A stretch of 64,000 nucleotides of DNA from Eledone cirrhosa (GCA_964016885.1 OZ024749.1:23312001-23376000), one strand, 5' to 3'; counted from the first letter of the stretch, positions 1,854-58,207 are shown. The notes: generated by a model from the sequence alone, not told the origin. Numbers and translations are program-made.

Positions 1854-1898
1854 ATAGATAGATAGATAGATAGATATATATATATATATATATATATA

Positions 1899-2630: not shown

Positions 2631-2881
2631 TATATCTATCTATCTATCTATCTATCTCTCTATCAGACGTGTGTAACTTCGCGGAGAAGTTTCCGTTAAT
2701 TTATGTAAGAAAAAAACGTGAGATTTTAGTTAAATTTTATATCATTGTGTAACATGACGCCCCGTCTGAACCTTCAGGTGCTGGGTCAACTCATTTTCGC
2801 CCCTACAAGGGCGGAATATCCATTTGAAATTTTTTTCTCCATCGAATCTTGGAAAAAATATTGTAAAATTTTGATTACGTT

Positions 2882-4844: not shown

Positions 4845-4877
4845 TCTCTTTTCCTCTTTTAACTTTTCAGCACCAAC

Positions 4878-15925: not shown

Positions 15926-16096
15926 ATTATTATTGTTGTTGTCGTTGTTGTTGCTGTTGTTGTTGTTATTGTCGTCAGTACTGATGCTGTTGCTGATAAT
16001 TTTGTTATTGCATCCATTATGCTTTACAATCGAACCAAATTCAAACTAAATGAACTGAAATTGATTCATAACACAATGCCAAAAGGTATGTTTACA

Positions 16097-31817: not shown

Positions 31818-31868
<51 letters not shown>

Positions 31869-31917
31869 ATAATAATAATAATAATAATAATAATTATAAT
31901 AATAATAATAATAATAA
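31818..31917. repeat. (CTA)n then (TAA)n; left edge of the TAA array
   Basis: Direct reading. Confidence 0.95.
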
Positions 31918-34900
31918 GGGAAGAAGACGCACGAGGTGACGGAGGTCATGAAATCGCTCCCGTAAGTTTTGAATTTTTAACATATTTAAATCATTTGTGA
32001 AATAACAACTCTTAGTACAAATGCTACGTAAAGCACCCGGCTTGAGCCCCAAAAAATTCGGACCCAAAATATATTGTTATAAGGCTCAAATATTCAAATA
32101 TTCAACTTTGTATTGTACACTGTATATCCAAAAAAAAATGGCTATAAATGGAAGAAGAAGAACCCCCCCCCTCCTCTCCTCTGGCTACACTATATAGGAC
32201 AGCTAAACTCACCAACACCAGAAACTAGATACACCGCCCACCCCATCATCTGTGTACACTAAACACAACAGCATTTTCACCTTCACCGCCACCGCTCACT
32301 ACGGCCATCATTACCACCACTATCCCATCACCGCCGCCACCACCCCTTGACTCCTTCACTGCTGCTGCCACCGCTACAGCACCATCACTACAGTAATACG
32401 GCTCAAATATTCAAATATTCAACTTTGTATTGTACACTGTATATCCAAAAGAAAAAAAAAAAATAAATAAAATAAAATGGCTATAAATGGAAGAAGAAGA
32501 ACCCCCCCCTCCTCTCCTCTGGCTACACTATATAGGACAGCGAAACTCACCAACACCAGAAACCAGATACACCACCCACCCCATCATCTGTGTACACTAA
32601 ACACAACAGCATTTTCACCTTCACCGCCACCGCTCACTACGGCCATCATTACCACCACTATCCCATCACCGCCGCCACCACCCCCTGACTCCTTCACTGC
32701 TGCTGCCACCGCTACAGCACCATCACTACAGTAATACGGTCGCATCACCGCCACCACTGCCTCGGTATCGACATCACCGCCACCACTGTCTCAGTATCGC
32801 CAACGCCGCTAGTCTCTGCTGGCTACCACTTCCACATTATAGAATTCCTACTACCAACAAAGAGGAAGGCATCAAAATATATAGATAGACTCAAAAGAAA
32901 AAAGAAAAAACAAACAACAAAAGCAGCACAGCAACAACAGTAAAAAACGAGAAAAACAGAGAAAAACAAAAACAAAAAAAGAAACCCCAAAAACGTAAAG
33001 AAAATAAGAATGAAGAGAGAAGCAGGCGGACGGACAGAGAAGAGGGGGGAAAAAGTAAAACTTAAAAAACAAAAACTAAGTCAGACATTCGAATACTACA
33101 TTACAATGAAACTTATGCTTATTCATTTTTGGGGCCCTTTCTGCCCGTGTGTTTGTTTGTTTATGTGTGTCCGTATACAGCGTGGTGATAATGCCACACA
33201 AGGGCCAAGTGGGATGGCGGATCCACAGATGGCTATGTAAACATACATTCGCCAATCCTCGATAAGAGTGTTTAAATATCGAACATAAACAGTTCGAATA
33301 ACGGTGAAATGGAGACTAGAACGTCATGTGACAGACTCTCACCCAACAGGTGCCCCCTGGCTCAGCAGCAGGAACCTGACTGTCAACGAAATACTGCTGA
33401 TGTTTGAGGAAGAAGAAGAAGGAAAGGGGCCAGAACCAACTGGACGAAAGAATTGAATAGAACTGTTATGCAATGCTACCTGAAAAGTAACCCCAAGGAG
33501 AGGGGCTACAGGAGACGGATGCATAACATCTGGAACGAGATTGGTTTATTTAAATTAGATGAACAAAAATTGGCCGGGCAGGCTCGGGTAATAAGAACTA
33601 ATGGGTGGATAAGCGAGCTGGAACTGGAGGAACTGAGCAGAGAGAATGGCTTGGAGATGGCGGGTGTAGTATGCCAGACAAGCGAGCCGGCGGGAAATGA
33701 AGGTGAGGAGGTCCTGAGAGCGGAGGAACCACCCGAAGCAGACAATGATCTGAATACTGAGATAAATAATACCTGGAACAGAGATACGGCCACTGAGGAG
33801 ATGAATGCTGACGGGCTAGGACAAGATTCGATTGACATCCTAAATTTAGTGGTAGATGAGTTGAACAATGATAGTGGGAGACCTATGAACCTAAGATTTG
33901 TAGACAGGAAAAAGTTAAAAGAAACAACAGCTAAGGTAAACAAAGTCATCCCATACCTTGAGGCGAGGAGTCTTCACCAGTGCAACAATATCCTCAAAGC
34001 AACAGCAAATACGGTGAGGAAACTACTTGGTATAAAAGCGAGAGGAAACAACAGACAAGAAAGAGCAGAGCCGTGGTGGAAGAAGCGACTGAGTGGGCAA
34101 ATCGGGGAAATGAGAAATGACATAGCAAAGCTTGAGTCACTACTGAATGGGACACTAAAAAACATAGGCACTAAAAATAGACTGGAAATAAAATACAAAA
34201 CTAGGAGTAAAAAGCTAAATATTATCATAGAGGAATTGAAGCAACGCATTGTAGCAAAGAGTGCCAAAATCAGGCGATACGAGAACAGAGTCAGTCAGTA
34301 TAAACAGAACCGCATGTTCGACAACAACCAGAAGATGCTGTTTGGACAGCTTGAGGGGAAAGAAAGAGGCACCGACTTGATCCCTGGGGCGGAACAAGCT
34401 AAAACATTCTGGAGAGGAATATGGGAGCAGGATGTTAGACACAATGCCCAGGCAGGGTGGATTGAGACAGTACAGAGGGAGATCGGTGAGCAGGCACAGC
34501 AACAGACTGATTTGAGTATCACAGTTGAAACTCTTAAGGGGCAAGCCGAAAAACTAACCAACTGGACATCACCAGGCCCAGATGGTGTGCAGGGGTATTG
34601 GATTAAACATGTAACATCCCTCCACCCGAAGCTGACGGCCATGTTCAATGACTGCTTGGTGTCGGGTGAGGTGCCAGAGTGGTTGACAAAAGGTACCACA
34701 GTTCTGATAATGAAAGACCGAATCAAGGGTAATGATGTTACCAACTATAGACCTATCACATGTCTGCCCGTAATGTGGAAACTGTTGACGAGCATTGTGT
34801 CTGAGGAAATCTACCATCACCTCCACACAAACAACTTGTTGCCGGACGAACAGAAAGGATGCCGAAAGAAGTCACGTGGTACAAAGGACCAGTTGCTTAT

Positions 34901-36775
34901 TGATAAGATGGTAATGGGGAATTGCAGGAGGAGACACACTGATCTTGCCATGGGATGGATAGACTACAGAAAGGCATTTGACATGGTGCCTCATTCCTGG
35001 ATCACCAAAAGCCTGGAGATCTTCAGGGTGGCAGATAACATCAGACAGTTGCTGGGCAGGAGTATGGGGTCCTGGGAGACAGAGTTGACATCAACTGGAG
35101 TATCCTTGGGAAGCGTGAAGATCAAGAGAGGTATCTTCCAGGGAGGTAGCCTGTCCCCTCTGTTGTTTGTCCTTGCCCTGATGCCCTTGACCATTATGCT
35201 GCGAAAAGTGAGAGCAGGATACAAGTTGGGAAGGGGAGAGCTTACCATCAATCACCTCCTCTTCATGGACGATCTTAAGCTCTTCGGGAAAAGTGAGAAG
35301 GAGTTGGATGTGCTTGTTGACACTGTCCGTATTTTCAGCAGTGATATATGTATGCAGTTTGGTATTGGTAAATGTGGAGTCATTGTGATGAGGAGGGGTA
35401 GGTTGAGCAGAAGTAACGGGATCCAGATACCAACAGGTGAGATGATAAAGGAAATTGACTCTGAGGAAGGATACAAGTATTTGGGCGTTCTGGAGGCTGA
35501 TGGCATAAAGAACAAAAAAATGAAGGAATTGTTAAGAACTGAATACATTCGGAGAGTAAGGAGCGTATTGAAGTCACATCTGAACAGCAGAAATGCCATA
35601 AGCGCAGTAAATTCCCGAGCTGTGTCTATTATTAGGTACAGTGCGGGAATTCTGAGATGGAATGTTGCTGAACAAAAAGAAATGGATAGGAAGACTAGGA
35701 AGCTATTGACTATCTACAACATGTTCCACAAGAGGAGTGATGTCGATAGACTCTACCTAAGGAGATCTGAGGGTGGAAGAGGTCTTATCAGCATAGAGGA
35801 CTGTGTTCAGATGGAGAAAAACAACCTATACAAATACGTGACCTATAGTAAGGAGCCAATGCTCAGAGCTGTACTGAAGGAGGGGACAGTAGGCCAGGGG
35901 ATACCCAAGGAGGAAATAACATCAAGGAGGAAGAGCAGCCTTAAGGGAAAATCCCTTCATAGTACCTTCTTTGAGAAAACTGAATTTAGAGATCCACAGA
36001 CATGGAACTGGTTGAGAAGAGGAGACCTCAAAAAGGCTACAGAAGGAATGCTAATGGCTGCGAAGGAGCAGGCCCTCAAAACGAAGTGGTTGAAGCACCA
36101 TATCTACAAGGAGGAGGCTAGCCCACTGTGCAGGATCTGTGGAGAGAGAGAGGAGACTGTGGCTCACATTGTGTCCGAGTGTAAACACCTAGCCCAGACC
36201 CACTATAAGGGCTGGAGACACGATGTGATGGGCAGGGTGATCCACTGGCACCTGTGCAAAGTAAACAATCTACCACATTCTGAGAAATGGTATGAGCATA
36301 GGCCAGAGGCGGTGATGGAGAACAGTCAGGTGAAGGTGCTGTGGGATTTTAGGATACAGACGGACAAAAAACTGGAACACAATAGACCTGACCTGGTGGT
36401 TGTGGACAAAGAAAAAAGATCGTGCCTGATTGTGGATGTGGCCTGCCCGTTCGACACGAGAGTGCAAGAGAAGGAGAGGGAGAAAATTAACCGATACCAG
36501 GACCTAAAGTGGGAGGTGAAAAGGATTTGGAACTGCCATGAAGTCAAAGTGATCCCGATTGTCATAGGCGCACTGGGGACTATCTCCAAAGGTTTCCAGG
36601 AATGGTTAAAGAAAATCGGCCCCTTCACGCTTTTTGGAACGCTTCAAAAGGCATGCTTGCTTGGAACGGCAAGAACCCTCCGATACGTCCTGAATATCTG
36701 AGGCTGCAGGTAGTGGCTTGATATTCAATCCAACGGACTTTCCAGTTAACCAACATCAATGACTGAGATTCAAGG
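31918..36775 (+). mobile_element. Full-length R4/Dong-clade RLE LINE (family a, copy 1) in (TAA)n
   Basis: TAA tracts on both sides; ~1.4-kb 5' UTR, single ORF, short 3' UTR ending GAGATTCAAGG then (AAT)n. Confidence 0.95.
33309..36701 (+). CDS. R4/Dong polyprotein: Myb-like N-terminus, RT, CCHC knuckle, PD-(D/E)xK restriction-like endonuclease; premature TGA at 33405
   Basis: WTKELNRTVMQCY..RGYRRRMH; NYRPITCL; WIDYRKAFD; LFMDDLKL; YKYLG; CRIC..ETVAH...C; RHD; RPDLVVVD..DVACP..K..KINRY. ATG 33309 is in frame with the 1082-aa ORF. Confidence 0.93.
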
Positions 36776-36812
36776 AATAACAATAACAATAATAATAATA
36801 ATAATCATAATC

Positions 36813-36852
<40 letters not shown>

Positions 36853-39800
36853 GGAAGAAGACGCACGAGGTGACGGAGGTCATGAAATCGCTCCCGTAAG
36901 TTTTGAATTTTTAACATATTTAAATCATTTGTGAAATAACAACTCTTAGTACAAATGCTACGTAAAGCACCCGGCTTGAGCCCCCAAAAATTCGGACCCA
37001 AAATATATTGTTATAAGGCTCAAATATTCAAATATTCAACTTTGTATTGTACACTGTATATCCAAAAAAGAAAATGGCTATAAATAGAAGAAGAACCCCC
37101 CCCCCCCCCCATCCTCTCCTCTGTCTACACTATATAGGACAGCCAAACTCACCAACACCAGAAACTAGATACACCACTCACCCCATCATCTGTGTACACT
37201 AAACACACCAGCCAGATAACGGCATTTTCACCTTCACCACCACCGCTCACTACGGCCATCATTACCACCACTATCCCATCACCGCCGCCACCACCCCTTA
37301 ACTCCTTCACTGCTGCCACCGCTACAGCACCATCACTACAGTAATACGGTCACATCACCGCCACCACTGCCTCGGTATCGACATCACCACCACCACTGTC
37401 TCAGTATCGCTACCGCCGCCAGTCTCCCACTTCTCCCTGCTGGCTGCTACTTCCACATTATAGAATTCCTACTACTAACAAAGAGGAAGGCATCAAAATA
37501 TATATATAGATAGACTCAAAAGAAAAAAGAAAAAACAAACAACAAAACCAAAGCAGCACAGCAACAACAGCAAAAACGAGAAAAACAAACAGAGAAAAAC
37601 AAAAACAAAAAAAGAAACCCCAAAAACGTAAAGAAAATAAGAATGAAGAGAGAAGCAGGCGGACGGACAGAAAAGAGGGGGGAAAAACTAAAACTTAAAA
37701 AACAAAAACTAAGTCAGACATTCGAACACTACATTACAATGAAGCTTATGCTTATTCATTTTTGGGGCCCTTTCTGCCTGTGTGTTTGTTTGTTTATGTG
37801 TGTTCGTATACAGCGTGGTGATAATGCCACACAAGGGCCAAGTGGGATGGCGGATCCACGGATGGCTATGTAGCCATACATTCGCCAATCCTCGATAAGA
37901 GTGTTTAAATATCGAACATAAACAGTTCGAATAACGGTGAAATGGAGACTAGAACGTCATGTGACAGACTCTCACCCAACAGGTGCCCCCTGGCTCAGCA
38001 GCAGGAACCTGACTGTCAACCAAATACTGCTGATGTTGGAGGAAGAAGAAGAAGGAAAGGGGCCAGAACCAACTGGACGAAATAATTGAATAGAACTGTT
38101 ATGCAATGCTACCTGAAAAGTAACCCCAAGGAGAGGGGCTACAGGAGACGGATGCATAACATCTGGAACGAGATTGGTTTATTTAAATTAGATGAACAAA
38201 AATTGGCCGGGCAGGCTCGGGTAATAAGAACTAATGGGTGGATAAGCGAGCTGGAACTGGAGGAACTGAGCAGAGAGAATGGCTTGGAGATGGCGGGTGT
38301 AGTATGCCAGACAAGCGAGCCAGTATGAAATGAAGGTGAAGAGGTCCTGAGAACGGAGGAACCACCCGAAACAGACAATGATCTGAATACTGAGATAAAT
38401 AATACCTGGAACAGAGATACGGCCACTGAGGAGATGAATGCTGACGGGCTAGGACAAGATTCGGTTGACATCCTAAATTTAGTGGTAGATGAATTGAACA
38501 ATGATAGTGGGAGACCTATGAACCTAAGATTTGTAGACAGGAAAAAGTTAAAAGAAACAACAGCTAAGGTAAACAAAGTCATCCCATACCTTGAGGCGAG
38601 GAGCCTTCACCAGTGCAACAATATCCTCAAACCAACAGCAAATAAGGTGAGGAAACTACTTGGTATAAAAGCGAGAGGAAACAACAGACAAGAAAGAGCA
38701 GAGCCGTGGTGGAAAAAGCGACTGAGTGGGCAAATCGGGGAAATGAGAAATGACATAGGAAAGCTTGAGTCACTACTGAATGGGACACTAAAAAACATAG
38801 GCACTAAAAATAGACTGGAAATAAAATACAAAACTAGGAGTAAAAAGCTAAATATTATCATAGAGGAATTGAAGCAACGCATTGTAGCAAGAGTGCAAAA
38901 ATCAGGCGATACGAGAACAGAGTCAGTCAGTATAAACAGAACCGCATGTTCGACAACAACCAGAAGATGCTGTTTGGACAGCTTGAGGGGAAAGAAAGAG
39001 GCAACGACTTGATCCCTGGGGCGGAACAAACTAAAACATTCTGGAGAGGAATATGGGAGCAGGATGTCAGACATAATGCCCAGGCAGGGTGGATTGAGAC
39101 AGTACAGAGGGAGATCGGTGAGCAGGCACAACAACAAACTGATTTGAGTATCACAGTTGAAACTCTTAAGGGGCAGGCCAAAAAACTAACCAACTGGAAA
39201 TCACCAGGCCCAGATGGTGTGCAGGGGTATTGGATTAAACATTTAACATCCCTCCACCCGAAGCTGACGGCCATGTTCAATGACTGCTTGGTGTCGGGTG
39301 AGGTGCCAGAGTGGTTGACAAAAGGTACCACAGTTCTGATAATGAAAGACCGAATCAAGGGTAATGATGCTACCAACTATAGACCTATCACATGTCTGTC
39401 CGTAATGTGGAAACTGTTGACGAGCATTGTGTCTGAGGAAATCTACCATCACCTCCACACAAACAACTTGTTACCGGACGAACAGAAAGGATGCCGAAAG
39501 AAGTCACGTGGTACAAAGGACCAGTTACTTATTGATAAGATGGTAATGGGGAATTGCAGGAGGAGACACACTGATCTTGCCATGGGATGGATAGACTACA
39601 GAAAGGCATTTGACATGGTGCCTCATTCTTGGATCACCAAAAGCCTGGAGATCTTCAGGGTGGCAGATAACATCAGACAGTTAGTTGCTGGGCAGGAGTA
39701 TGGGATCCTGGGAGACAGAGTTGACATCAACTGGAGTATCCTTGGGAAGCGTGAAGATCAAGAGAGGTATCTTCCAGGGAGATAGCCTGTCCCCTCTGTT

Positions 39801-41410
39801 GTTTGTCCTTGCCCTAATGCCCTTGACCATTATGCTGCGAAAAGTGAGAGCAGGATACAAGTTGGGAAGGGGAGAGCTTACCATCAATCACCTCCTCTTC
39901 ATGGACGATCTTAAGCTCTTCGGGAAAAGTGAGAAGGAGTTGGATGTGCTTGTTGACACTGTCCGTATTTTCAGCAGTGATATATGTATGCAGTTTGGTA
40001 TTGGTAAATGTGGAGTCATTGTGATGAGGAGGGGTAGGTTGAGCAGAAGTAGCGGGATCCAGATACCAACAGGTGAGATGATAAAGGAAATTGATTCTGA
40101 GGAAGGATACAAGTATTTGGGCGTTCTGGAGGCTGATGGCATAAAGAACAAAAAAATGAAGGAATTGTTAAGAACTGAATACATTCGGAGAGTAAGGAGC
40201 GTATTGAAGTCACATCTGAACAGCAGAAATGCCATAAGCGCAGTAAATTCCCGAGCTGTGTCTATTATTAGGTACAGTGCGGGAATTCTGAGATGGAATG
40301 TTGCTGAACAGAAAGAAATGGATAGGAAGACTAGGAAGCTATTGACTATCTACAACATGTTCCACAAGAGGAGTGATGTCGATAGACTCTACCTAAGGAG
40401 ATCTGAGGGTGGAAGAGGTCTTATCAGCATAGAGGACTGTGTTCAGATGGAGAAAAACAACCTATACAAATACGTGACCTATAGTAAGGAGCCAATGCTC
40501 AAAACTGTATGAAGGAGGGGACAGTAGGCCAGGGGATGTCCAAGGAGGAAATAACATCAAGGAGGAAGAGCAGCCTTAAGGGAAAATCCCTTCATAGTAC
40601 CTTCTTTGAGAAAACTGAATTTAGAGATCCACAGACATGGAACTGGTTGAGAAGAGGAGACCTCAAAAAGGCTACAGAAGGAATGCTAATGGCTGCGCAG
40701 GAGCAGGCCCTCAAAACGAAGTGGTTGAAGCACCATATTTACAAGGAGGAGGCTAGCCCACTGTGCAGGATCTGTGGAGAGAGAGAGGAGACTGTGGCTC
40801 ACATTGTGTCCGAGTGTAAACACCTAGCCCAGACCCACTATAAGGGCTGGAGACACGATGTGATGGGCAGGGTGATCCACTGGCACCTGTGCAAAGTAAA
40901 CAATTTACCACATTCTGAGAAATGGTATGAGCATAGGCGGGAGGCGTTGATGGAGAACAATCAGGTGAAGGTGCTGTGGGATCTTAGGATACAGACGGAC
41001 AAAAAACTGGAACACAATAGACCTGACCTGGTGGTTGTGGACAAGGAAAAAAGATCGTGTCTGATTGTGGATGTGGCCTGCCCGTTCGACACGAGAGTGC
41101 AAGAGAAGGAGAGGGAGAAAATTAACCGATACCAGGACCTAAAGTGGGAGGTGAAAAGGATTTGGAACTGCCATGAAGTCAAAGTGATCCCGATTGTCAT
41201 AGGCGCACTAGGGACTATCTCCAAAAGTTTCCAGGGATGGTTAAAGAAAATCGGCCCCTTCACGCTTTTTGGAACGCTTCAAAAGGCATGCTTGCTTGGA
41301 ACAGCAAGAACCCTCCGATACGTCCTGAATATCTGAGGCTGCAGGTAGTGGCTTGATATTCATTCCAAAGGACTTTCCAGTTAACCAACATCAATGACTG
41401 AGATTCAAGG
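36853..41410 (+). mobile_element. Full-length R4/Dong family a, copy 2, head-to-tail with copy 1
   Basis: Same 5' start GGAAGAAGACGCACGAGG after TAA tract 36776-36852; same 3' end; TAA tract 41411-41461. Confidence 0.95.
37942..41336 (+). pseudogene. R4/Dong ORF, disrupted
   Basis: Stops at 38083 and 38326; frameshifts at ~38890, ~39682 (4-bp insertion) and ~40509 relative to copy 1. Confidence 0.93.
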
Positions 41411-41416
41411 AATAAC

Positions 41417-41463
<47 letters not shown>

Positions 41464-41725
41464 TTTCTTTATTAACCACAAGGGTTTACATAAAGTAGAC
41501 ATTAAGGACAGTGCAGGACAACGCAGGACGGTACAAATGGGCATTTCTGCGTGTAAAAAAAACAAAAACAGAGGATGTAACAAAAATAACAATGAAAATA
41601 ACAATGAAAAATTCCCCAATAGGGGGGGAGACTTCGGAGGGACATTTATGGAGAAAGCCCAGTAAAAAGCCACAATGACCCTGACCACCAAGGCAAGTGC
41701 CCTCTCCCAGTTTTCCACCTTTAAT

Positions 41726-44700: not shown

Positions 44701-45145
44701 GTGCATCTAAGATCCCGTTCCAGTCGCCCACTAACACTAAAGAGCGCGACGTTCCAAGAAAGGTCTCCAGACGCCGGAAGAAATCAGGCCGCCCTGCTCC
44801 TGTCGGGGCATAGACGGCCACTAGCCTGAAAGCTTGCCCGTCTCCGCTGGTCACGTCCAGCACCACCAGCTTACCCTCTGGGTCCAGGAAGATGGCCCGT
44901 ATGGCGAGATCCAAACCTCTCCGAAAAAGTACAGCAACTCCTCCACCGGATCCAGGATGGCTGGGAGATGCGTACACATCGTAGCCGCCGAAGATCGGTG
45001 CGAAGGCCCGTGCTTCGGAGATTCTGGTCTCGCTGATGGCCACTACATCTATGTTTAGTGACCTGAGGTCGTTGAGCAGGTGACCCTGCTTCCATGACGA
45101 CCCCAAGCCACGCGCATTTATGATGCCTATTCTGAGTGAGGTCAT
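41726..45145 (-). CDS. Tx1 ORF2p: APE endonuclease, RT, C-terminal Cys/His finger (1139 aa)
   Basis: NARGL, SETR, GDWN, YLDR, TDH; LDQSKAFD, QGCPLS, YADD; CPRC..H...C. Confidence 0.97.
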   Translation of the reverse strand: MTSLRIGIINARGLGSSWKQGHLLNDLRSLNIDVVAISETRISEARAFAPIFGGYDVYASPSHPGSGGGVAVLFRRGLDLAIRAIFLDPEGKLVVLDVTSGDGQAFRLVAVYAPTGAGRPDFFRRLETFLGTSRSLVLVGDWNGILDARWDCVGLADRGGGCKSLTNLLRRFELSDRYRLDFPNVPMWTWTNRIGSSRSYLDRVFCREIDWSSIGCPQFKIVSYTDHKFVICVLDLDRLHRRGPGYWKLNASLPARKAYRDRISELVKRALTGAIVNNKWWFALKRAIRIESIRFSKALAIEKNRAEGELVRKLDEALSKGIATDVLAAKLALDQFFNAKHEGCVVRARVRALRHEGTKAVQWARVAEARRGNKATIRSLVDHDGRMLLDPGQMCEAFQRHFAQLFGGSGGPGRGMDFSVYLDGLPRLSATEAKCCEKPITAAEVREAMTGCTRGKSPGLDGLPYELYVQIPDLFGGLLADVYCNWQQNGRIPSSVSRGAVALLRKDPNKGDNIENFRPITLLNTEFKILAKVLAKRLALVVGGLVGEAQTCAIPDRSIHDNLHLMRYIVERVAREPGTGGSLINLDQSKAFDRVDHRYLAAVLRAAGFGPVFRGWIAAMHSDICSVVRVNGHLSEPFNIMRSVRQGCPLSSLLYVLTLEPLLHKLETLRGVPREIGCGRSVSAYADDVTVVVSNAKHIEAIGNTLREYEAVTGAMINQEKSVGLQLGTWRGKSMPSNSVVGRWTDGPVKLLGVWFGPDLQTDKNWDEVTSRVASLTQKWAERKLSLKGRAEVANAYIASVICYRLTVVPCPKPRLTVLERLLFRFLWKGRAPMVRRSICCQHPLRGGLGMPWLMMRRHALRLRHLHLFLDGDQVWSPFARRVFPQLVSLTELQSWVKRRPRGSAWRLECLKAHTALDQSGNVIGGNSTSAFYRGLVEGKSDDVLGETLGVDENQLANLFGRTFGPGPMDNFQKSLAWQCYRGALPVRDKLYRHGGAVSRACPRCAQGDETVLHALDQCPKIADLWVYVEHLLSRLGRIRLSSESIVRIAPPSSFSREGQAVFICLVAMAKEIVWWTRLKGPKTSTYLFGDALIDFFKFHLKRKIRVEREVLSSQHFVERWVREARMARVNGPTLSIYL

Positions 45146-45180
45146 GTTTAAAATAGAGTGGAAATGATAGGAAAGACCAC

Positions 45181-47280: not shown

Positions 47281-47514
47281 GTTGTTTTTTGTTTAAAATG
47301 AAATTTTGGGTACAAAACCCCAATAACTGATTATTTAACCCCGAAGGGCCAAATAACGGACAGAAAGACCCCTCTCACGAGGAGGGGGGTGTCTTTATCA
47401 ACAATTTGGTTCAAGTTTTAAACAATTTACAATTGTTTTAACGGTTAAAAATTACTATACCTTACAGAGCCGAGCCTCCGTCAACCATGGCATTCAATAA
47501 TAATAATAATAATA

Positions 47515-48560
47515 AAGAGGAGTGATGTCGATAGACTCTACCTAAGGAGATCTGAGGGTGGAAGAGGTCTTATCAGCATAGAGGACTGTGTTCAGATGGA
47601 GAAAAACAACCTATACAAATACGTGACCTATAGTAAGGAGCCAATGCTCAGAACTGTACTGAAGGAGGGGACAGTAGGCCAGGGGATGTCCAAGGAGGAA
47701 ATAACATCAAGGAGGAAGAGCAGCCTTAAGGGAAAATCCCTTCATAGTACCTTCTTTGAGAAAACTGAATTTAGAGATGCACAGACATGGAACTGGTTGA
47801 GAAGGGGAGACCTGAAAAAGGCTACAGAAGGAAGGCTAATGGCTGCGCAGGAGCAGGCCCTCAAAACGAAGTGGTTGAAGCACCATATTTACAAGGAGGA
47901 GGCTAGCCCACTGTGCAGGATCTGTGGAGAGAGAGAGGAGACTGTGGCTCACATTGTGTCCGAGTGTAAACAACTAGCCCAGACCCACTATAAGGGCTGG
48001 AGACACGATGTGATGGGCAGGGTGCTCCACTGGCACCTGTGCAAGGTAAACAATTTACCACATTCTGAGAAATGGTATGAGCATAGGCCAGAGGTGGTGA
48101 TGGAGAACAATCAGGTGAAGGTGTTGTGGGATTTTAGGATACAGACGGACAAAAAACTGGAACACGATAGACCTGACCTGGTGGTTGTGGACAAAGAAAA
48201 AAGATCGTGTCTGATTGTGGATGTGGCCTGCCCTTTCGACACGAGAGTGCAAGAGAAGGAGAGGGAGAAAATTAACCGATACCAGGACCTAAAGTGGGAG
48301 GTGAAAAGGATTTGGAATTGCCATGAAGTCAAAGTGATCCCGATTGTCATAGGCGCACTGGGGACTATCTCCAAAAGTTTCCAGGGATGGTTAAAGAAAA
48401 TCGGCCCCTTCACGCTTTTTGGAACGCTTCAAAAGGCATGCTTGCTTGGAACAGCAAGAACCCTCCGATACGTCCTGAATATCTGAGGCTGCAGGTAGTG
48501 GCTTGATATTCAATCCAACGGACTTTCCAGTTAACCAACATCAATGACTGAGATTCAAGG
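47515..48560 (+). mobile_element. 5'-truncated R4/Dong family a (copy 3)
   Basis: Starts at KRSDVDRLY directly after a TAA tract; 296-aa knuckle plus RLE ORF; same 3' end. Confidence 0.95.
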
Positions 48561-48593
48561 AATAACAACAATAATAATAATAACAATAATAAT

Positions 48594-49610
48594 GGACTAC
48601 AAATTTCAGAAGTCCCATTTACTGCTGAAATGGAAAACACAGAAAAAGCAAAGCAGGTAAAAGTAACTGCAAAGAAAGAACTGCTACAGAAACTGGCTAA
48701 GAAATGGCAAGAATAGCCTCTGTATGGAAAATACCCAGAGCGAGCTAACAATCCTGATGTTGACAAAACTTTAACCCATCAGTGGTTGGCATCCTCTGGA
48801 CTGAAATCGGAGACTGAAGGACTGATTATATCCGCACAAGATCAGTGTCTGCCAACAAAAAATTACCAAGCCAACATAATAAAAAATGGGTGCAGCCCAT
48901 TATGCCGTGTATGCAAAAAACAACCAGAGACCATTGATCATATAATTTCAATGTGCAGTCCTATAGCTCCAACCGAATACCTAAACAGGCATGACAGAGC
49001 TGCACAATACATACATTGGATAATGTGTAAGCATTTTGACCTGCCCCATATAAAAGAATTGGTGGGAGCATCAACCACCTCCCATACTTGAAAAAGATCA
49101 CATCTCAATCTTGTGGAACTTTAGCATCCAAACAGACCGAAAAATAGATGCAAATAGACCTGATATAATATTGAAGGACTTTCAAAGGAGGGTATGCCTG
49201 CTAATTGATATGTCTGTTCCAATAGACAAGAATGTATCTATAAAAACATTTGAAAAATTGAGCAAGTATAAGGACCTGGAGATAGAAATTGGAAAAATGT
49301 GGAAATTGAGAACTAAAACAATACCAGTGGTTGTAGGCGCTCTGGGAATGATACCTAAGGGGTCTAACGACTACTTATCGCAAATCCCAGGAAACCCGCG
49401 TATAGGAGAAATACATAAGATAGTACTAATGGGAACTGCCCATATACTAAGGAAGATCCTGTCAATATAAGTACATCACAAGTCTAAACACTAAGGATGC
49501 ATGTGTGAATATGTGTGTTCTCTCTTGAACATGGCGGACCTTGTTGTCTCTTGAGGTCACTGGTTGTGACTTGGTGATAACTCGTATAAACATAAAGCAA
49601 GATAAATGCA
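48594..49610 (+). mobile_element. 5'-truncated R4/Dong family b
   Basis: LKSETEGLIISAQDQ..CRVC..ETIDH...C..RHD..NRPDIILKD..IDMSVP..KLSKY; one stop and one frameshift; TAA on both sides. Confidence 0.92.
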
Positions 49611-49666
<56 letters not shown>

Positions 49667-49927
49667 TTTCTTTATTAACCACAAGGGTTTACATAAAGTA
49701 GACATTAAGGACAGTGCAGGACAATGCAGGACGGTACAAATGGGCATTTCTGCGTGTAAAAAAAACAAAAACAGAGGATGTAACAAAAATAACAATGAAA
49801 ATAACAATGAAAAATTCCCCAATAGGGGGGAGACTTCGGAGGGACATTTGTGGAGAAAGCCCAGTAAAAAGCCACAATGACCCTGACCACCAAGGCAAGT
49901 GTCCTCTCCCAGTTTTCCACCTTTAGT

Positions 49928-52900
49928 TTACAGATATATACTCAGAGTCGGCCCATTCACTCGGGCCATTCTTGCTTCTCTCACCCATCTTTCAACAAAA
50001 TGCTGGGAAGAGAGCACTTCCTTCTCTACTCTGATTTTCCTTTTCAAATGAAATTTGAAAAAGTCAATCAGAGCATCACCGAAGAGGTAAGTGCTCGTCT
50101 TCAGCCCTTTCAAACGTGTCCACCATACTATCTCTTTCGCCATGGCCACCAGACAGATAAAAACTGCCTGCCCTTCCCGGCTAAAGGAGGAGGGCGGGGC
50201 AATCCTCACGATAGACTCAGATGATAGCTGGATCCGTCCTAAACGCGACAGCAGGTGTTCGACATAAACCCACAAGTCAGCAATTTTCGGACACTGGACG
50301 AGTGCGTGCAGGACGGTTTCGTCGCCCTGCGCGCATCTCGGACATGCCCGGCTGACGGCACCTCCATGCCTGTAGAGTTTATCCCGAACTGGCAAGGCTC
50401 CTCGGTAGCACTGCCAGGCCAGAGATTTCTGGAAGTTGTCCATAGGCCCCGGCCCGAAAGTTCTTCCGAAGAGATTGGCTAGTTGATTTTCGTCGACGCC
50501 TAGAGTTTCCCCAAGTACGTCGTCGCTCTTCCCCTCCACTAATCCTCTATAGAACGCCGAGGTGGAGTTTCCACCGATCACATTGCCCGATTGGTCGAGG
50601 GCTGTGAGCGCCTGAAGACATTCCAGTCTCCAGGCGCTCCCTCTCGGTCTTCGCTTGACCCAGGACTGCAGCTCCGTCAAGGAAACGAGCTGGGGAAAAA
50701 CGCGTCTAGCAAACGGCGACCACACCTGATCACCGTCGAGGAAGAGGTGGAGATGTCGTAGCCTGAGCGCGTGCCTGCGCATCATCAGCCACGGCATGCC
50801 CAGCCCTCCACGTAGCGGGTGTTGACAACAGATGGACCGCCTGACCATTGGAGCACGTCCCTTCCACAAAAAGCGAAAGAGCAAACGCTCCAGCGCAGTC
50901 AGGCGAGGCTTAGGACAAGGTACGACGGTTAGGCGGTAGCAGATGACAGACGCGATGTACGCGTTAGCCACCTCCGCTCGACCTTTCAGGGATAGCTTCC
51001 TCTCCGCCCATTTCTGGGTGAGAGAAGCTACCCTGCTCGTCACCTCGTCCCAGTTTTTGTCCGTCTGGAGGTCCGGACCGAACCAGACCCCTAGCAATTT
51101 AACCGGTCCGTCCGTCCAGCGCCCGACGACGCTGTTGGACGGCATGGACCTGCCTCTCCAGGTGCCGAGCTGCAGGCCCACTGACTTTTCCTGGTTGATC
51201 ATTGCTCCTGTCACCGCTTCGTATTCTCTTAGTGTAGTGCCGATCGCCTCGATGTGTTTGGCGTTCGACACCACTACGGTGACATCGTCGGCATATGCTG
51301 ACACGGATCTTCCGCATCCTAGTTCGCGCGGGACTCCCCTCAACGTCTCCAGTTTGTGCAGTAATGGCTCGAGAGTCAATACGTACAAGAGGGACGAGAG
51401 GGGACATCCTTGGCGGACCGAGCGCATGATGTTGAACGGTTCCGACAGGTGACCGTTCACTCTCACCACAGAGCAGATGTCGCTGTGCATGGCAGCGATC
51501 CAGCCTCTGAAGACGGGCCCAAAGCCAGCCGCCCTCAGGACTGCCGCTAGGTAACGATGGTCGACCCTATCGAAAGCTTTCGACTGATCTAAATTGATCA
51601 AGGACCCACCCGTGCCAGGTTCCCTAGCTACCCTCTCTACGATGTATCGCATGAGGTGGAGGTTGTCGTGGATGGATCTGTCGGGAATGGCGCATGTCTG
51701 CGCCTCTCCCACCAGACCACCAACGACAAGCGCCAACCTCTTTGCTAGCACCTTGGCCAAAATCTTAAACTCTGTGTTTAGCAGAGTTATGGGCCGGAAA
51801 TTGTCTATGTTATCCCCCTTGTTCGGATCCTTTCTCAGCAGTGCCACCGCTCCTCGGCTCACAGAACTGGGAATTCTCCCGTTCTGTTGCCAGTTGCAGT
51901 AGACGTCCGCCAAGAGGCCCCCGAACAAGTCTGGCATCTGTACGTAAAGTTCATAGGGCAGACCATCCAAACCAGGCGATTTACCCCTTGTGCAGCCAGT
52001 CATTGCCTCCCTTACTTCAGCGGCTGTTATCGGCTTTTCGCAACACTTCGCCTCAGTGGCCGAGAGCCGCGGCAGTCCGTCGAGGTAGACACTAAAGTCC
52101 ATCCCTCTACCCGGCCCACCGCTGCCCCCGAACAGCTGAGCGAAGTGTCGCTGAAAAGCTTCACACATTTGCCCGGGATCGAGTAGCATGCGCCCGTCGT
52201 GGTCCACCAAAGACCGGATCGTGGCTTTGTTGCCACGTCGCGCCTCCGCCACTCGGGCCCATTGAACGGCTTTCGTCCCCTCGTGTCTGAGAGCACGCAC
52301 CCTAGCTCTGACAACGCAGCCTTCGTGCTTTGCATTGAAGAATTGGTCAAGGGCCAATTTCGCCGCAAGCACGTCGGTCGCAATGCCTTTGCTAAGCGCC
52401 TCGTCTAATTTTCTAACTAGTTCTCCCTCTGCTCTATTTTTCTCTATTGCTAAAGCCTTACTAAACCTAATCGATTCTATTCTAATCGCTCTTTTCAGAG
52501 CAAACCACCACTTGTTGTTGACGATGGCCCCCGTCAACGACCGCTTAACTAGTTCGCTAATCCGGTCTCTGTAGGCCTTGCGCGCTGGTAAGGACGCGTT
52601 TAGCTTCCAGTAGCCGGGTCCTCGTCTATGAAGCCTATCTAAGTCAAGCACACAGATCACGAATTTGTGGTCCGTGTAGCTGACTATCTTGAATTGTGGA
52701 CAGCCTATGCTAGACCTATCTATTTCCCTACAAAATACTCTATCTAGATATGATCTGGATGACCCTATGCGGTTTGTCCAAGTCCACATTGGCACATTCG
52801 GGAAATCCAATCGGTACCTGTCAGACAGTTCAAAACGCCTGAGCAGGTTGGTGAGGCTCTTGCACCCTCCACCCCTATCCGCTAATCCCACACAGTCCCA

Positions 52901-53347
52901 GCGTGCATCTAAGATCCCGTTCCAGTCGCCCACTAACACTAAAGAGCGGGACGTTCCAAGAAAGGTCTCCAGACGCCGGAAGAAATCAGGCCGCCCTGCT
53001 CCTGTCGGGGCATAGACGGCCACTAGCCTGAAAGCTTGCCCGTCTCCGCTGGTCACGTCCAGCACCACCAGCTTACCCTCTGGGTCCAGGAAGATGGCCC
53101 GTATGGCGAGATCCAAACCTCTCCGAAAAAGCACAGCAACTCCTCCACCCGATCCAGGACGGCTGGGAGATGCGTACACATCGTAGCCGCCGAAGATCGG
53201 TGCGAACGCCCGTGCTTCGGAGATTCTGGTCTCACTGATGGCCACTACATCTATGTTTAGTGACCTGAGGTCGTTGAGCAGGTGACCCTGCTTCCATGAC
53301 GACCCCAAGCCACGCGCATTTATGCTGCCTATTCTGAGTGAGGTCAT
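49928..53347 (-). CDS. Tx1 ORF2p (1139 aa)
   Basis: Same motifs as 41726-45145; about 16 aa differences by eye. Confidence 0.97.
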   Translation of the reverse strand: MTSLRIGSINARGLGSSWKQGHLLNDLRSLNIDVVAISETRISEARAFAPIFGGYDVYASPSRPGSGGGVAVLFRRGLDLAIRAIFLDPEGKLVVLDVTSGDGQAFRLVAVYAPTGAGRPDFFRRLETFLGTSRSLVLVGDWNGILDARWDCVGLADRGGGCKSLTNLLRRFELSDRYRLDFPNVPMWTWTNRIGSSRSYLDRVFCREIDRSSIGCPQFKIVSYTDHKFVICVLDLDRLHRRGPGYWKLNASLPARKAYRDRISELVKRSLTGAIVNNKWWFALKRAIRIESIRFSKALAIEKNRAEGELVRKLDEALSKGIATDVLAAKLALDQFFNAKHEGCVVRARVRALRHEGTKAVQWARVAEARRGNKATIRSLVDHDGRMLLDPGQMCEAFQRHFAQLFGGSGGPGRGMDFSVYLDGLPRLSATEAKCCEKPITAAEVREAMTGCTRGKSPGLDGLPYELYVQMPDLFGGLLADVYCNWQQNGRIPSSVSRGAVALLRKDPNKGDNIDNFRPITLLNTEFKILAKVLAKRLALVVGGLVGEAQTCAIPDRSIHDNLHLMRYIVERVAREPGTGGSLINLDQSKAFDRVDHRYLAAVLRAAGFGPVFRGWIAAMHSDICSVVRVNGHLSEPFNIMRSVRQGCPLSSLLYVLTLEPLLHKLETLRGVPRELGCGRSVSAYADDVTVVVSNAKHIEAIGTTLREYEAVTGAMINQEKSVGLQLGTWRGRSMPSNSVVGRWTDGPVKLLGVWFGPDLQTDKNWDEVTSRVASLTQKWAERKLSLKGRAEVANAYIASVICYRLTVVPCPKPRLTALERLLFRFLWKGRAPMVRRSICCQHPLRGGLGMPWLMMRRHALRLRHLHLFLDGDQVWSPFARRVFPQLVSLTELQSWVKRRPRGSAWRLECLQALTALDQSGNVIGGNSTSAFYRGLVEGKSDDVLGETLGVDENQLANLFGRTFGPGPMDNFQKSLAWQCYRGALPVRDKLYRHGGAVSRACPRCAQGDETVLHALVQCPKIADLWVYVEHLLSRLGRIQLSSESIVRIAPPSSFSREGQAVFICLVAMAKEIVWWTRLKGLKTSTYLFGDALIDFFKFHLKRKIRVEKEVLSSQHFVERWVREARMARVNGPTLSIYL

Positions 53348-53382
53348 GTTTAAAATAGAGTGGAAAAGATGGGAAAGACCAC

Positions 53383-55476
53383 TTACCGTACTTTTGGTAG
53401 AGGAGGGATGGTTTTTACATCCCTTTTCACTTGATCGTCTGGTGAAGGGACCGTTGAATCGTCCCTTCGGCTGGTCGTCGGCTCTTCTAAGAGAATGTCT
53501 GAATATACTCTTCGATTAATGGTTCCTCCTAGGTCCCTGAAATCACCAACTGCGTTGGGGAATTTCGTTTTAATGTTTGTGTATTGTTTCTGTGCTATTT
53601 TTAGCAGTCTTATGTTAGTTGGCGTTTTGATTGGTGCTGGTATTATGTAGTCCTGTTGTGAAATGTCTGTGTGTTCAATTATGTAAGTCATTAGTTTCTT
53701 GTTGTGTGTGTTTATTGCCGTGCATTTGTTTTTCTGGGGGTGGGGTGTGGTTCTGCTATTTTCTTGTCGTTGTTGCTGGGTGTGTGTGTTTTGTTGTTGT
53801 GTTTGCGATGTTGGTGCTTGTGGTGGTGGTGTTGAAGGTGTTGTTGGCGGTGGGGTTGTCGCCGGTGGTGATGGTGGCGCTAGTGTGGGTGGTGATGGTG
53901 TTGGTGTTGTTGCTGCTGTGGGTCTCTTTGCAGTAGACTTTACCCTTTTCTCATTTCTTTCCTCCCTTTTCAAAGGCGACGATGCGCTGCTTCTGCGTTT
54001 GTGCCTTCTTACGACCTTTTGCCATCTCTCTCCCACCTCACACTCCATGTCTGATTCTGTGAGGTCGGGGAGGGGTACCAACTCCACTCTTTCACTTGTT
54101 GTTGTTGGTGATGTTTGCACTGGAGTCTCTGTTGCAGCTGCATTTGGTATTGCTGTTGTTGTTGTTAGTATTTCCACTGCTGCTGCTGTTTTTGATTTCC
54201 GTGGAGTGGGTATGGGTGCCACGGGCCTATCGTTCCTGGTTGCCCCTTGTCCTGTTGCTGGTAGTCGTGGAGCCGGATTCGGAAGGAGGGGGGTTTTCTC
54301 CTTTCTCAGGGTCTTCTCGTTGCAGAAGGCCCTGAGGTGAGTCTTCGATCCACAGCGAAAGCATTTCGGGCGTTTGCCCTCAACACTTATGGGCAGTTGA
54401 GTGCCGTTATCGAAGTCTATCACATCCGGGATAGCTTCGATGCACTCCTGGTTGGTTTGGATTAGCATCTCAATGGAGGAGCCGACCCAATCTTCTCTTA
54501 CTTTTTTCTGTACTTGCAGTACAGTTGTTTTGTCCTCGATTCCGACGAGGACAGACGCGGCCAGCCAAGAAGGGGTCATTCCGGGGGGGACGTGGGTCAG
54601 TTTGACCCTCACAATTTTTTGCCCACAGTAGGAGGGCACCAACACCATTTCCTCGCTCCTTAGGGTCACTACTGATTGGGCCTTTGCCTCCTGGGGTGTG
54701 GCAAAAAGTACGTCTACGGTGGCATATTTTTTGCCTCGGGTGATGTGCGTTTTCCGCTGCCACACAGACCCTAAGGCTTTTTGTATTTGGGCCTCTGTGG
54801 CTCTTTCCACCCTACGGGATTTTGTACTTACTGTACGGTACGTGACCGTACAGTGCTCTTGGGTTTCGAAAAAATTTTTCGCTGCCTTGCAGATTGCTCG
54901 GTGCCCGTTCTTTGTCACCATCTTCTTCGCTTCCTCTAATTCCTCATTTGTTATGAGGATTGTTTCCAAGTTTTTCGCAATACCTGCAAATGAGATTGGT
55001 TTTTCTCTGCTGTTGTTGTTGTCGTCAGAGCTGCTGGTACTTTTGTTGCTGCAGGTACTACGACTACTGCCTCCGCCGCTGTTGCTGTGGTTGTTGTTGG
55101 TGTTGCTGCTGCTAATGCTGTTGTTGTTTATGCTGCTGGTGATGCTGTTGCGGCTGCTACTGTTGTTTTCATTGTCACTGTTGCTGTTGTTATTACGGCT
55201 GCTACTGCTATTATTCCTGACGTCAGACGAATGAACTGGGTTTTCGTATTTCCCGCACACCTGTTTCGTCGCTGTCGTCGTCGTCGTGGAGAAACCTTGC
55301 ACGCTTTGCACGAGACTTTTCTTTTCTTTCGTCACTTGCGAAAGAGAAGGGAGGGAGAGAGACACATTTAAAGAAGGGAGGGAGAGAGACAATCTTCTCT
55401 CTGCTGTAGTGATGATTGAGGAAGAAGAAGACGGAATGAGTGGGAGTGACGTATGAAATTTCTTTTTCGTAGCCAT
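53383..55476 (-). CDS. Tx1 ORF1p (697 aa)
   Basis: Same as 45181-47280 with two single-codon indels and several substitutions. Confidence 0.93.
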   Translation of the reverse strand: MATKKKFHTSLPLIPSSSSSIITTAERRLSLSLPSLNVSLSLPSLSQVTKEKKSLVQSVQGFSTTTTTATKQVCGKYENPVHSSDVRNNSSSSRNNNSNSDNENNSSSRNSITSSINNNSISSSNTNNNHSNSGGGSSRSTCSNKSTSSSDDNNNSREKPISFAGIAKNLETILITNEELEEAKKMVTKNGHRAICKAAKNFFETQEHCTVTYRTVSTKSRRVERATEAQIQKALGSVWQRKTHITRGKKYATVDVLFATPQEAKAQSVVTLRSEEMVLVPSYCGQKIVRVKLTHVPPGMTPSWLAASVLVGIEDKTTVLQVQKKVREDWVGSSIEMLIQTNQECIEAIPDVIDFDNGTQLPISVEGKRPKCFRCGSKTHLRAFCNEKTLRKEKTPLLPNPAPRLPATGQGATRNDRPVAPIPTPRKSKTAAAVEILTTTTAIPNAAATETPVQTSPTTTSERVELVPLPDLTESDMECEVGERWQKVVRRHKRRSSASSPLKREERNEKRVKSTAKRPTAATTPTPSPPTLAPPSPPATTPPPTTPSTPPPQAPTSQTQQQNTHTQQQRQENSRTTPHPQKNKCTAINTHNKKLMTYIIEHTDISQQDYIIPAPIKTPTNIRLLKIAQKQYTNIKTKFPNAVGDFRDLGGTINRRVYSDILLEEPTTSRRDDSTVPSPDDQVKRDVKTIPPLPKVR

Positions 55477-55710
55477 GTTGTTTTTTGTTTAAAATGAAAT
55501 TTTGGGTACAAAACCCCAATAACTGATTATTTAACCCCGAAGGGCCAAATAACGGACAGAAAGACCCCTCTCACGAGGAGGGGGGTGTCTTTATCAACAA
55601 TTTGGTTCAAGTTTTAAACAATTTACAATTGTTTTAACGGTTAAAAATTACTATACCTTACAGAGCCGAGCCTCCGTCAACCATGGCATTCAATAATAAT
55701 AATAATAATA

Positions 55711-56756
55711 AAGAGGAGTGATGTCGATAGACTCTACCTAAGGAGATCTGAGGGTGGAAGAGGTCTTATCAGCATAGAGGACTGTGTTCAGATGGAGAAA
55801 AACAACCTATACAAATACGTGACCTATAGTAAGGAGCCAATGCTCAGAACTGTACTGAAGGAGGGGACAGTAGGCCAGGGGATGTCCAAGGAGGAAATAA
55901 CATCAAGGAGGAAGAGCAGCCTTAAGGGAAAATCCCTTCATAGTACCTTCTTTGAGAAAACTGAATTTAGAGATGCACAGACATGGAACTGGTTGAGAAG
56001 GGGAGACCTGAAAAAGGCTACAGAAGGAAGGCTAATGGCTGCGCAGGAGCAGGCCCTCAAAACGAAGTGGTTGAAGCACCATATTTACAAGGAGGAGGCT
56101 AGCCCACTGTGCAGGATCTGTGGAGAGAGAGAGGAGACTGTGGCTCACATTGTGTCCGAGTGTAAACAACTAGCCCAGACCCACTATAAGGGCTGGAGAC
56201 ACGATGTGATGGGCAGGGTGCTCCACTGGCACCTGTGCAAGGTAAACAATTTACCACATTCTGAGAAATGGTATGAGCATAGGCCAGAGGTGGTGATGGA
56301 GAACAATCAGGTGAAGGTGTTGTGGGATTTTAGGATACAGACGGACAAAAAACTGGAACACGATAGACCTGACCTGGTGGTTGTGGACAAAGAAAAAAGA
56401 TCGTGTCTGATTGTGGATGTGGCCTGCCCTTTCGACACGAGAGTGCAAGAGAAGGAGAGGGAGAAAATTAACCGATACCAGGACCTAAAGTGGGAGGTGA
56501 AAAGGATTTGGAATTGCCATGAAGTCAAAGTGATCCCGATTGTCATAGGCGCACTGGGGACTATCTCCAAAAGTTTCCAGGGATGGTTAAAGAAAATCGG
56601 CCCCTTCACGCTTTTTGGAACGCTTCAAAAGGCATGCTTGCTTGGAACAGCAAGAACCCTCCGATACGTCCTGAATATCTGAGGCTGCAGGTAGTGGCTT
56701 GATATTCAATCCAACGGACTTTCCAGTTAACCAACATCAATGACTGAGATTCAAGG
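55711..56756 (+). mobile_element. 5'-truncated R4/Dong family a (copy 4; duplicate of 47515-48560)
   Basis: Same truncation point; identical translations; offset 8196. Confidence 0.95.
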
Positions 56757-56789
56757 AATAACAACAATAATAATAATAACAATAATAAT

Positions 56790-57806
56790 GGACTACAAAT
56801 TTCAGAAGTCCCATTTACTGCTGAAATGGAAAACACAGAAAAAGCAAAGCAGGTAAAAGTAACTGCAAAGAAAGAACTGCTACAGAAACTGGCTAAGAAA
56901 TGGCAAGAATAGCCTCTGTATGGAAAATACCCAGAGCGAGCTAACAATCCTGATGTTGACAAAACTTTAACCCATCAGTGGTTGGCATCCTCTGGACTGA
57001 AATCGGAGACTGAAGGACTGATTATATCCGCACAAGATCAGTGTCTGCCAACAAAAAATTACCAAGCCAACATAATAAAAAATGGGTGCAGCCCATTATG
57101 CCGTGTATGCAAAAAACAACCAGAGACCATTGATCATATAATTTCAATGTGCAGTCCTATAGCTCCAACCGAATACCTAAACAGGCATGACAGAGCTGCA
57201 CAATACATACATTGGATAATGTGTAAGCATTTTGACCTGCCCCATATAAAAGAATTGGTGGGAGCATCAACCACCTCCCATACTTGAAAAAGATCACATC
57301 TCAATCTTGTGGAACTTTAGCATCCAAACAGACCGAAAAATAGATGCAAATAGACCTGATATAATATTGAAGGACTTTCAAAGGAGGGTATGCCTGCTAA
57401 TTGATATGTCTGTTCCAATAGACAAGAATGTATCTATAAAAACATTTGAAAAATTGAGCAAGTATAAGGACCTGGAGATAGAAATTGGAAAAATGTGGAA
57501 ATTGAGAACTAAAACAATACCAGTGGTTGTAGGCGCTCTGGGAATGATACCTAAGGGGTCTAACGACTACTTATCGCAAATCCCAGGAAACCCGCGTATA
57601 GGAGAAATACATAAGATAGTACTAATGGGAACTGCCCATATACTAAGGAAGATCCTGTCAATATAAGTACATCACAAGTCTAAACACTAAGGATGCATGT
57701 GTGAATATGTGTGTTCTCTCTTGAACATGGCGGACCTTGTTGTCTCTTGAGGTCACTGGTTGTGACTTGGTGATAACTCGTATAAACATAAAGCAAGATA
57801 AATGCA
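56790..57806 (+). mobile_element. 5'-truncated R4/Dong family b (duplicate of 48594-49610)
   Basis: Same truncation and lesions; followed by TAA tract 57807-57901. Confidence 0.93.
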
Positions 57807-57878
<72 letters not shown>

Positions 57879-58207
57879 TATAATAATAATAATAATAATA
57901 AGAAGAAGAATAAGAAGAAGAAGAAGAATGAGGAGGAGGAAGAGTAAAAAGAGGTGGAGTAGGTGCAACATTAATATTAACAAGAGCAAACATTACAAAA
58001 GGCCATATAACAGCAACCACTTCTGCATCAATAACAATAAACAAACACGAAAGAAAGCAAAAAAAACACATTAACAACAACAACAACAACAACAGCAATG
58101 ACGGCAACGGAATTAACAGGAGCCGCCATGTTGAAAAACTTTAATGATTACAACAGCGAAATAATCAGCAGGTAGAGGAACAAAACAACTTCAGTAACAT
58201 TATCATT

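Follow-up and report, generated by a model that had tools for sequence, protein, structure and literature searches.

How do two unrelated classes of retrotransposon come to lie in single file, facing opposite ways and separated by nothing but a simple repeat? The question is raised by a 64-kb stretch of the genome of the octopus Eledone cirrhosa (C9:23,312,001-23,376,000, hereafter the window, in a genome of 3.0 Gb). Between positions 31867 and 57900, nine (AAT)n tracts bound eight segments of long interspersed nuclear elements (LINEs) in the order full-length Dong-A, full-length Dong-A, Tx1 (-), Dong-A 3′ end, Dong-B 3′ end, Tx1 (-), Dong-A 3′ end and Dong-B 3′ end, and none of the eight is inserted into another. 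This layout, first described in a sequence-only reading of the window, was confirmed. On the coding strand the repeat reads TAA in all six Dong segments and TTA in both Tx1 elements, and outside the array the window holds just one further AAT run of at least 5 units, at 15735. The array is one of many in which Dong and Tx1 face opposite ways in TAA repeats, probably through target-primed reverse transcription (TPRT) from opposite strands, and part of it probably arose when a new Tx1 element copied its neighbour's 5′ end together with the adjoining 2.1 kb.

Dong-A has one intact frame of 1097 amino acids, with a central reverse transcriptase (RT) followed by a C-terminal CCHC knuckle and a restriction-like endonuclease (RLE) of the PD-(D/E)xK type, and no apurinic/apyrimidinic endonuclease domain (APE). 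Its RLE stretch aligns to R2, and R2 proteins are its best solved relatives. A single open reading frame (ORF) of this build and insertion in (TAA)n such that the coding strand reads TAA are characteristic of R4/Dong; no clade name for the RT occurred among the 120 relatives listed of 652. The two full-length Dong-A copies are 98.1% identical over the ORF region, and Dong-B, present as 3′ pieces, shares about 35-44% protein identity with Dong-A. The 5′ untranslated region of the first Dong-A copy (about 1.5 kb) contains a 270-bp duplication (32130-32401 and 32469-32739) also seen in some copies elsewhere. Moreover, a (GAA)n run often separates the Dong 5′ end from the TAA tract (loci L086, L090, L109 and L064), and one truncated T1 copy begins at the complementary repeat, (TTC)n.

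The Tx1 family of the array, T1, encodes a CCHC zinc knuckle in ORF1 and APE, RT and zf-RVT domains in ORF2. Among solved proteins, human L1 ORF2 is the best match to ORF2 (E 3e-52), with R2 at 6e-21. An ORF1 zinc knuckle with an APE-RT-CCHC ORF2 of the L1 group is the Tx1 arrangement. A quick RT tree of 38 rows, without a named Tx1 or L1 reference, joined T1, its relatives T3 and T4 and an Argonauta protein with a support of 99, and among named proteins the one nearest to the Tx1 RT comes from Argonauta hians (73%). In structure and target the families fit the provisional labels Dong/R4 and Tx1. ORFs of about 1200 codons are kept in many T1 copies. Two T1 copies with different flanks (L219, C4:346.66 Mb; L220, C4:120.62 Mb) are 2 substitutions apart, pointing to very recent activity, and three others about 100 kb apart (L209, L210 and L211; C1:217.37-217.58 Mb) have the same flanks and 2-5 differences, which indicates either a recent segmental triplication or assembly redundancy.

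Target and orientation across the genome

The target rule suggested by the array holds in copies elsewhere. T1 5′ ends are preceded by (TTA)n in all of the 30 best matches (40 scored, from 764 candidates), and T1 3′ ends run into (ATT)n, without poly(A), in all of the best 30 of 1180 candidates, the window's own copies being included in both sets. Sixty longer stretches yielded 57 measurable full-length copies, every one of which has the junction ATT|G, preceded by 6-21 units (median 9); significantly more units follow downstream (1-35, median 13; paired p=0.0002). A second Tx1 head has the same junction with at least 4 units in 29 of 30 cases, and six truncated T3 copies elsewhere begin at TTA runs. 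The 3′ ends of Dong-A and Dong-B lie in AAT in 60/60 cases, and 50 of 58 truncated Dong 5′ ends have a repeat of their own polarity, scored as a run of 4 units within 40 bp upstream. At solo insertions, no long target-site duplications were apparent by eye. The Tx1-like elements at TTA exceed the level of 20% of flanks in one sequence type that has been used to define target preference (PMC4494074).

Polarity is equally strict. At 268 distinct tracts (59 loci, comprising the T2 set and redundant matches, were left out), 344 contacts between element ends and repeats were scored, of which 202 join Dong to AAT and 142 join Tx1 to ATT, with no exception; nor was opposite polarity found at the distinct junctions of truncated T1-like copies. 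The TTA flanks and fixed orientation of Tx1 expected by the sequence-only reading are therefore borne out beyond the window.

So is the association of the two classes. A left-anchored 8-unit AAT tract matches the genome at 26,354 places, and in the first 100 of these on C1, 35 of 99 gaps measure at most 7 kb, where random placement gives a mean of 2.6 and a maximum of 14 in 5000. Neighbouring tracts lie on the same strand in 34 of 35 close pairs and 37 of 64 distant pairs. Alignment placed a Dong or Tx1 end in contact with 19 of 30 sampled tracts, or 20 if the second Tx1 head is counted. A second array, at C1:2.79-2.81 Mb, is built of Dong-A, Dong-B and Tx1 pieces, again with no element inside another, and T1 alone forms head-to-tail arrays of up to seven copies on C3. 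One locus (L238, C2:156.07-156.08 Mb) has a T1 copy followed by another with an identical truncation point (position 44), which suggests that duplication took place inside the array.

Related Tx1-like families use another repeat. T2, with 967 candidates by 3′ end (loci L121-L150) and head-to-tail stacks of its own, ends in at least 2 units of TATC at 19 of 30 3′ ends, in TA runs at 6, in TC at 1 and in short or other sequence at 4, and its 5′ breakpoints show TATC at 11/20 and TTA at none. APE identity tracks the target, with 73.9% between T1 and T3 and 77.5% between T2 and T4 against 60-62% across the two classes, whereas RT identity is 78-81% among T1, T3 and T4 irrespective of target class. 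In L1, a hairpin of the endonuclease has a role in target specificity. The matching stretch reads RI or RM in the TTA families and SS or RS in the TATC families, a difference that may serve as a lead only. Taken together, these families allow the specificity of APE to be studied in a small experiment of nature.

Predicted priming strand and proposed tract renewal

Under the TPRT model as set out in PMC2881922, the primer is the strand opposite the coding strand, so that Dong would use (TTA)n as its primer strand and Tx1 would use (TAA)n. Cutting by Tx1 would take place at TpA steps, which occur on both strands of the repeat; the two Tx1 junction phases, C|ATT and ATT|G, are each compatible with TpA cleavage, one phase per strand, and the APE may therefore cut both. 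The T1 AATAAA lies 5 nt before the element's 3′ end, and given how 3′ processing operates, T1 RNA probably includes AUU units. Read past AATAAA in this way, the RNA would pair with the primer through its AUU units, which would explain the poly(A)-free insertions and help to fix polarity, as AUU pairs only with the (AAT)n strand. Polarity could thus be set by annealing of the RNA tail instead of by strand-specific nicking.

The sequence-only reading had favoured a stricter version, in which APE and RLE are each confined to nicking one of the complementary strands, with RNA tails as the sole source of renewed target. We regard this as possible, though the less likely course. Absolute polarity is what it predicts, and the tracking of target class by APE but not RT identity agrees with it, as do the shifts in specificity obtained with TRAS/SART endonuclease swaps (PMC7265360). 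Against it stand the two junction phases, which fit TpA cuts on both strands. The shared target thus survives, and opposite priming follows under TPRT, but the choice of strand by the endonuclease does not.

As for renewal, each insertion would split one tract into two usable ones, to be topped up by RNA-borne units, short target duplications and slippage. An AAC-interrupted tail start is common to six Dong-A copies on four chromosomes, which suggests that Dong-A RNA carries part of the tract. Together with the 3′ runs of T1, which exceed its 5′ runs, this lends indirect support to the regeneration of target by tails. Median tract length is 51 bp tail to tail, 36 bp head to head and 33-39 bp head to tail, a comparison made without a statistical test. 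Head-to-head tracts, which have no tail, are hence not shorter than those with one, and a tail-only mode of renewal is further disfavoured by the origin of two of the array's nine tracts, which were supplied by duplication (see below).

Other elements would probably seed new tracts with their tails. A 190-bp short interspersed nuclear element (SINE; L154:3000-3187 (-), with several copies in the window, e.g. one ending near 15926) carries ATT units at 60 of 78 3′ ends, and several Tx1 heads follow one of its tails. By eye its 3′ end resembles that of Tx1. Many copies have ordinary target duplications and others sit in TTA tracts with Tx1 polarity; it was rejected as a strictly TTA-targeted element on account of the ordinary flanks of many copies. 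The 3′ end of another LINE (L271, L287), which from its motif we take to be CR1-like, has an (ATT)n tail and is a further source of tracts.

Duplicated spacers and chimeric Tx1 copies

The two 8.2-kb halves of the array are 99.0% identical overall, and the differences are unevenly spread. The Dong pieces at 47514-49610 and 55710-57806 are 100% identical with the same truncation points, so the eight segments are not independent events, and a history of eight separate insertions was discarded on these grounds. A plain 8.2-kb tandem duplication was rejected as well: T1 copies differ by about 1%, and the two in the array (copies a and b) are 71 substitutions apart, against a median of 49 between copies, each being nearer to dispersed copies. 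Copy a's allele at position 110 recurs in copy b and in 0/40 other copies, but from position 413 onward copy b lacks at least 25 of copy a's rare alleles. Copy b is therefore an independent 3′ body joined to the 5′ end of copy a and the 2.1 kb upstream of it. Six insertions and a single duplication make up the array, to which an older T3 fragment on the left belongs as ninth member; of the original eight-segment description the layout stands, while independence and extent had to be revised.

The simplest reading of copy b is that cDNA primed upstream switched to the downstream copy and copied back to the nick. More generally, stalled cDNA would pair with a downstream Tx1 and be extended back to the nick, so that spacer, bystander elements and tracts are duplicated with it. 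Templated insertions and duplication-type rearrangements of L1 were reportedly described by Gilbert in 2005.

The pattern recurs. Nineteen adjacent full-length T1 pairs were compared (two further pairs without a full-length member were set aside), and in seven the downstream copy's rare alleles are common to both at the 5′ side only; clean 3′-shared pairs were absent from the 19, and one pair is a near-whole duplicate (5 differences). An identical 5′ run of at least 1 kb is present in 5/19 adjacent pairs, compared with 0.5% of 1666 pairs that are unlinked. Four of the chimeric pairs have a spacer other than pure repeat, and in all four this spacer is also found upstream of the chimera (2.1 kb, about 54 bp twice, and 232 bp). 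The idea of a self-growing array is retained in that array building recurs, but part of the growth here came through duplication with a chimeric Tx1.

Several results weigh against the account of opposite priming and insertion-linked copying. Most loci in the genome-wide counts were retrieved via the elements themselves, and the long-tract sample comes from the start of one chromosome and is clustered. The 4-unit rule was passed by just 6 of 18 truncated T1-like copies; judged by eye, 17 distinct copies comprised about 11 with TTA units, 1 with TTC and 5 with no repeat, the repeat-poor junctions belonging mostly to older or rearranged copies. Tail regeneration is not obviously needed, given the length of the tailless tracts. 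Among the seven chimeric pairs, one carries a discordant allele; a pair outside these seven is mosaic; and the prediction that the upstream chimera is the younger held in just 4/7 pairs.

A rival account has the spacers duplicated by ordinary ectopic recombination after insertion, between a chromosome bearing the new Tx1 and a homolog or sister that lacks it. Such recombination yields the same structure and the same 5′-shared polarity, the near-whole duplicate and the mosaic pair are in keeping with it, and the 4/7 outcome leaves room for it. We nevertheless consider it unlikely, as unequal crossover in fixed arrays should give 3′-shared pairs in equal number, of which no clean case was seen, and two steps would be required at each of 7 sites. 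Assembly errors are a still less probable source. A switch between filled and empty haplotypes inside near-identical Tx1 copies would give such sequence, but the difference of about 1% between copies suffices to phase long reads, the positions of the switch range from 0.1-0.4 kb to 5 kb and recur on five chromosomes, and the target specificity would be untouched by such a switch. There is very little to be said for an absence of targeting, with the repeats as part of the element ends or the elements passively piled up in AT-rich, gene-poor DNA: some truncated T1 copies do lack 5′ repeats and the exact ATT|G phase could mean a repeat-bearing RNA head, but 5′ repeats occur at varied breakpoints in most truncated Dong and many truncated T1 and T3 copies, tracts of at least 5 units are found in just 3/13 arbitrary 10-kb stretches, and neither array has an element inside another.

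Known systems and neighbouring features

Each component of the system has a counterpart elsewhere. Dong, known from B. mori, A. gambiae and B. glabrata, targets TAA, and the Tx1 elements Kibi and Koshi target TC and TTC, respectively (PMC3812793). The Dong families of E. cirrhosa match the first in their single ORF, RT, C-terminal RLE and TAA target; they differ in that two families form multi-kb arrays with tracts in common with an APE element, a situation unmentioned in the portion of PMC3812793 consulted. Crocodilian Tx1 targets TTCC/TTTC, and like Kibi and Koshi it is a two-ORF APE element of the L1/Tx1 group at microsatellites, close families using different repeat units (PMC4494074). The families described here are likened to Kibi and Koshi by mode of action, not as members, since their target is TTA, or TATC/TA in the sister family, in a mollusc, with a single truncated copy at TTC.

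Opposite insertion into one simple repeat is known from TRAS1 and SART1 in silkworm (TTAGG)n, where TpA is the cutting site of TRAS1, and bases resembling the repeat may let SART1 RNA anneal to the primer (PMC7265360). Both of those are APE elements of the R1 clade at telomeres, whereas here an APE and an RLE element meet at dispersed internal TAA tracts. Convergence of APE and RLE elements is exemplified by Keno (Tx1) and Utopia, which reached one U2 snRNA site in parallel (PMC4640811), though with the same site and the same 3′ flank in a gene instead of opposite strands of a renewable microsatellite. Finally, L1 cDNA can come away from its RNA and anneal to homologous DNA close by, producing chimeric elements with a duplicated segment (10.1101/2024.08.27.596794). 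In the cohort of that study, such events are somatic, rare and mostly <250 bp; those reported here are germline, affect 7/19 adjacent pairs, reach 2.1 kb and have one polarity.

Dong-R4 and L1-Tx1 were recently active in Octopus vulgaris according to PMC13282606, which never uses the word "target", and the sections seen of PMC9115989 mention Dong without its target. In the literature searched, with Repbase and most subscription papers outside it, neither a TTA- or TATC-type Tx1 nor Dong/Tx1 co-targeting nor such chimera polarity in natural arrays was found. Both conceptual novelties of the sequence-only reading have precedents, in TRAS1/SART1 and in Keno/Utopia: each part has a forerunner, and the target, the pairing and the duplication signature look unreported. 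There is an appreciable though minor chance that the families are already annotated in Repbase with their targets.

It is tempting to speculate that octopods harbour a self-propagating landing-pad system of several families, in which most long tracts belong to RLE and APE elements, each class keeping to its own strand of (TAA)n. Insertion of Tx1 beside an older copy would routinely duplicate the DNA between, tracts included, at one stroke, and the Tx1 endonuclease would have switched between TTA and TATC with the RT barely changed. We hold this wider proposal tentatively, somewhat short of endorsing it. If true, it would offer a natural series for mapping endonuclease specificity. A rule for the landing sites of two LINE classes that rank among the most active in octopus may explain local hotspots of transposable elements, and the presence of APE and RLE elements, both young and intact, at a single simple duplex would allow nicking preference to be separated from RNA-primer pairing. 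The 5′-chimera pattern points to insertion-linked duplication in the germline, a process otherwise seen mainly with L1, in tumours and cells; it also warns that counting copies in such arrays gives too high a number of insertions.

The features of the window are collected in Table 1.

Table 1. Repeat tracts and LINE segments of the array and related elements in the window
Feature	Position	Strand	Remarks
T4, relative of T2, 5′-truncated at a (TATC)n run	1..1860	-	outside array; extends left beyond the window
T2, sister Tx1-like family	2665..7803	+	outside array; (TATC)n on both sides
T3 Tx1-like fragment, both ends cut	29476..31817	-	76% DNA identity to the array's Tx1
(CTA)17 run, then TAA tract 1	31818..31916	.	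repeat run behind T3 fragment; tract 31867-31916
Dong-A, full length	31917..36775	+	1097-aa frame 33408-36701; RT, CCHC knuckle, PD..D..K RLE
TAA tract 2, Dong 3′ to Dong 5′	36776..36851	.	starts with AAC-interrupted units
Dong-A, full length, frameshifted	36852..41410	+	split RT matches
TAA tract 3, between Dong 3′ and Tx1 3′ (tail to tail)	41411..41461	.	
T1 copy a, full length	41462..47495	-	ORF1 47280-45181, ORF2 45145-41726
Spacer block	47496..49610	+	(AAT)6 47496-47513, Dong-A 3′ 47514-48560, tract 48561-48593, Dong-B 3′ 48594-49610
TAA tract 6, Dong-B 3′ to Tx1 3′	49611..49664	.	
T1 copy b, full length, chimeric	49665..55691	-	both ORFs open
Second spacer block	55692..57806	+	100% identical to 47496-49610; tracts 55692-55709 and 56757-56789
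TAA tract 9	57807..57900	.	right edge of array

The (CTA)17 run at the T3 breakpoint (31818-31868) shares its phase with a TAG inside the element, and may be a microsatellite born at the T3 junction. A TAG-specific Tx1 family was rejected as its source, other T3 copies beginning at TTA; among the repeat-bearing junctions examined, one further T3 copy breaks beside the same internal TAG. Elsewhere in the window, two arrays of 41-bp units (15364-15587 and 20554-20801) lie in opposite orientation and are related by eye.

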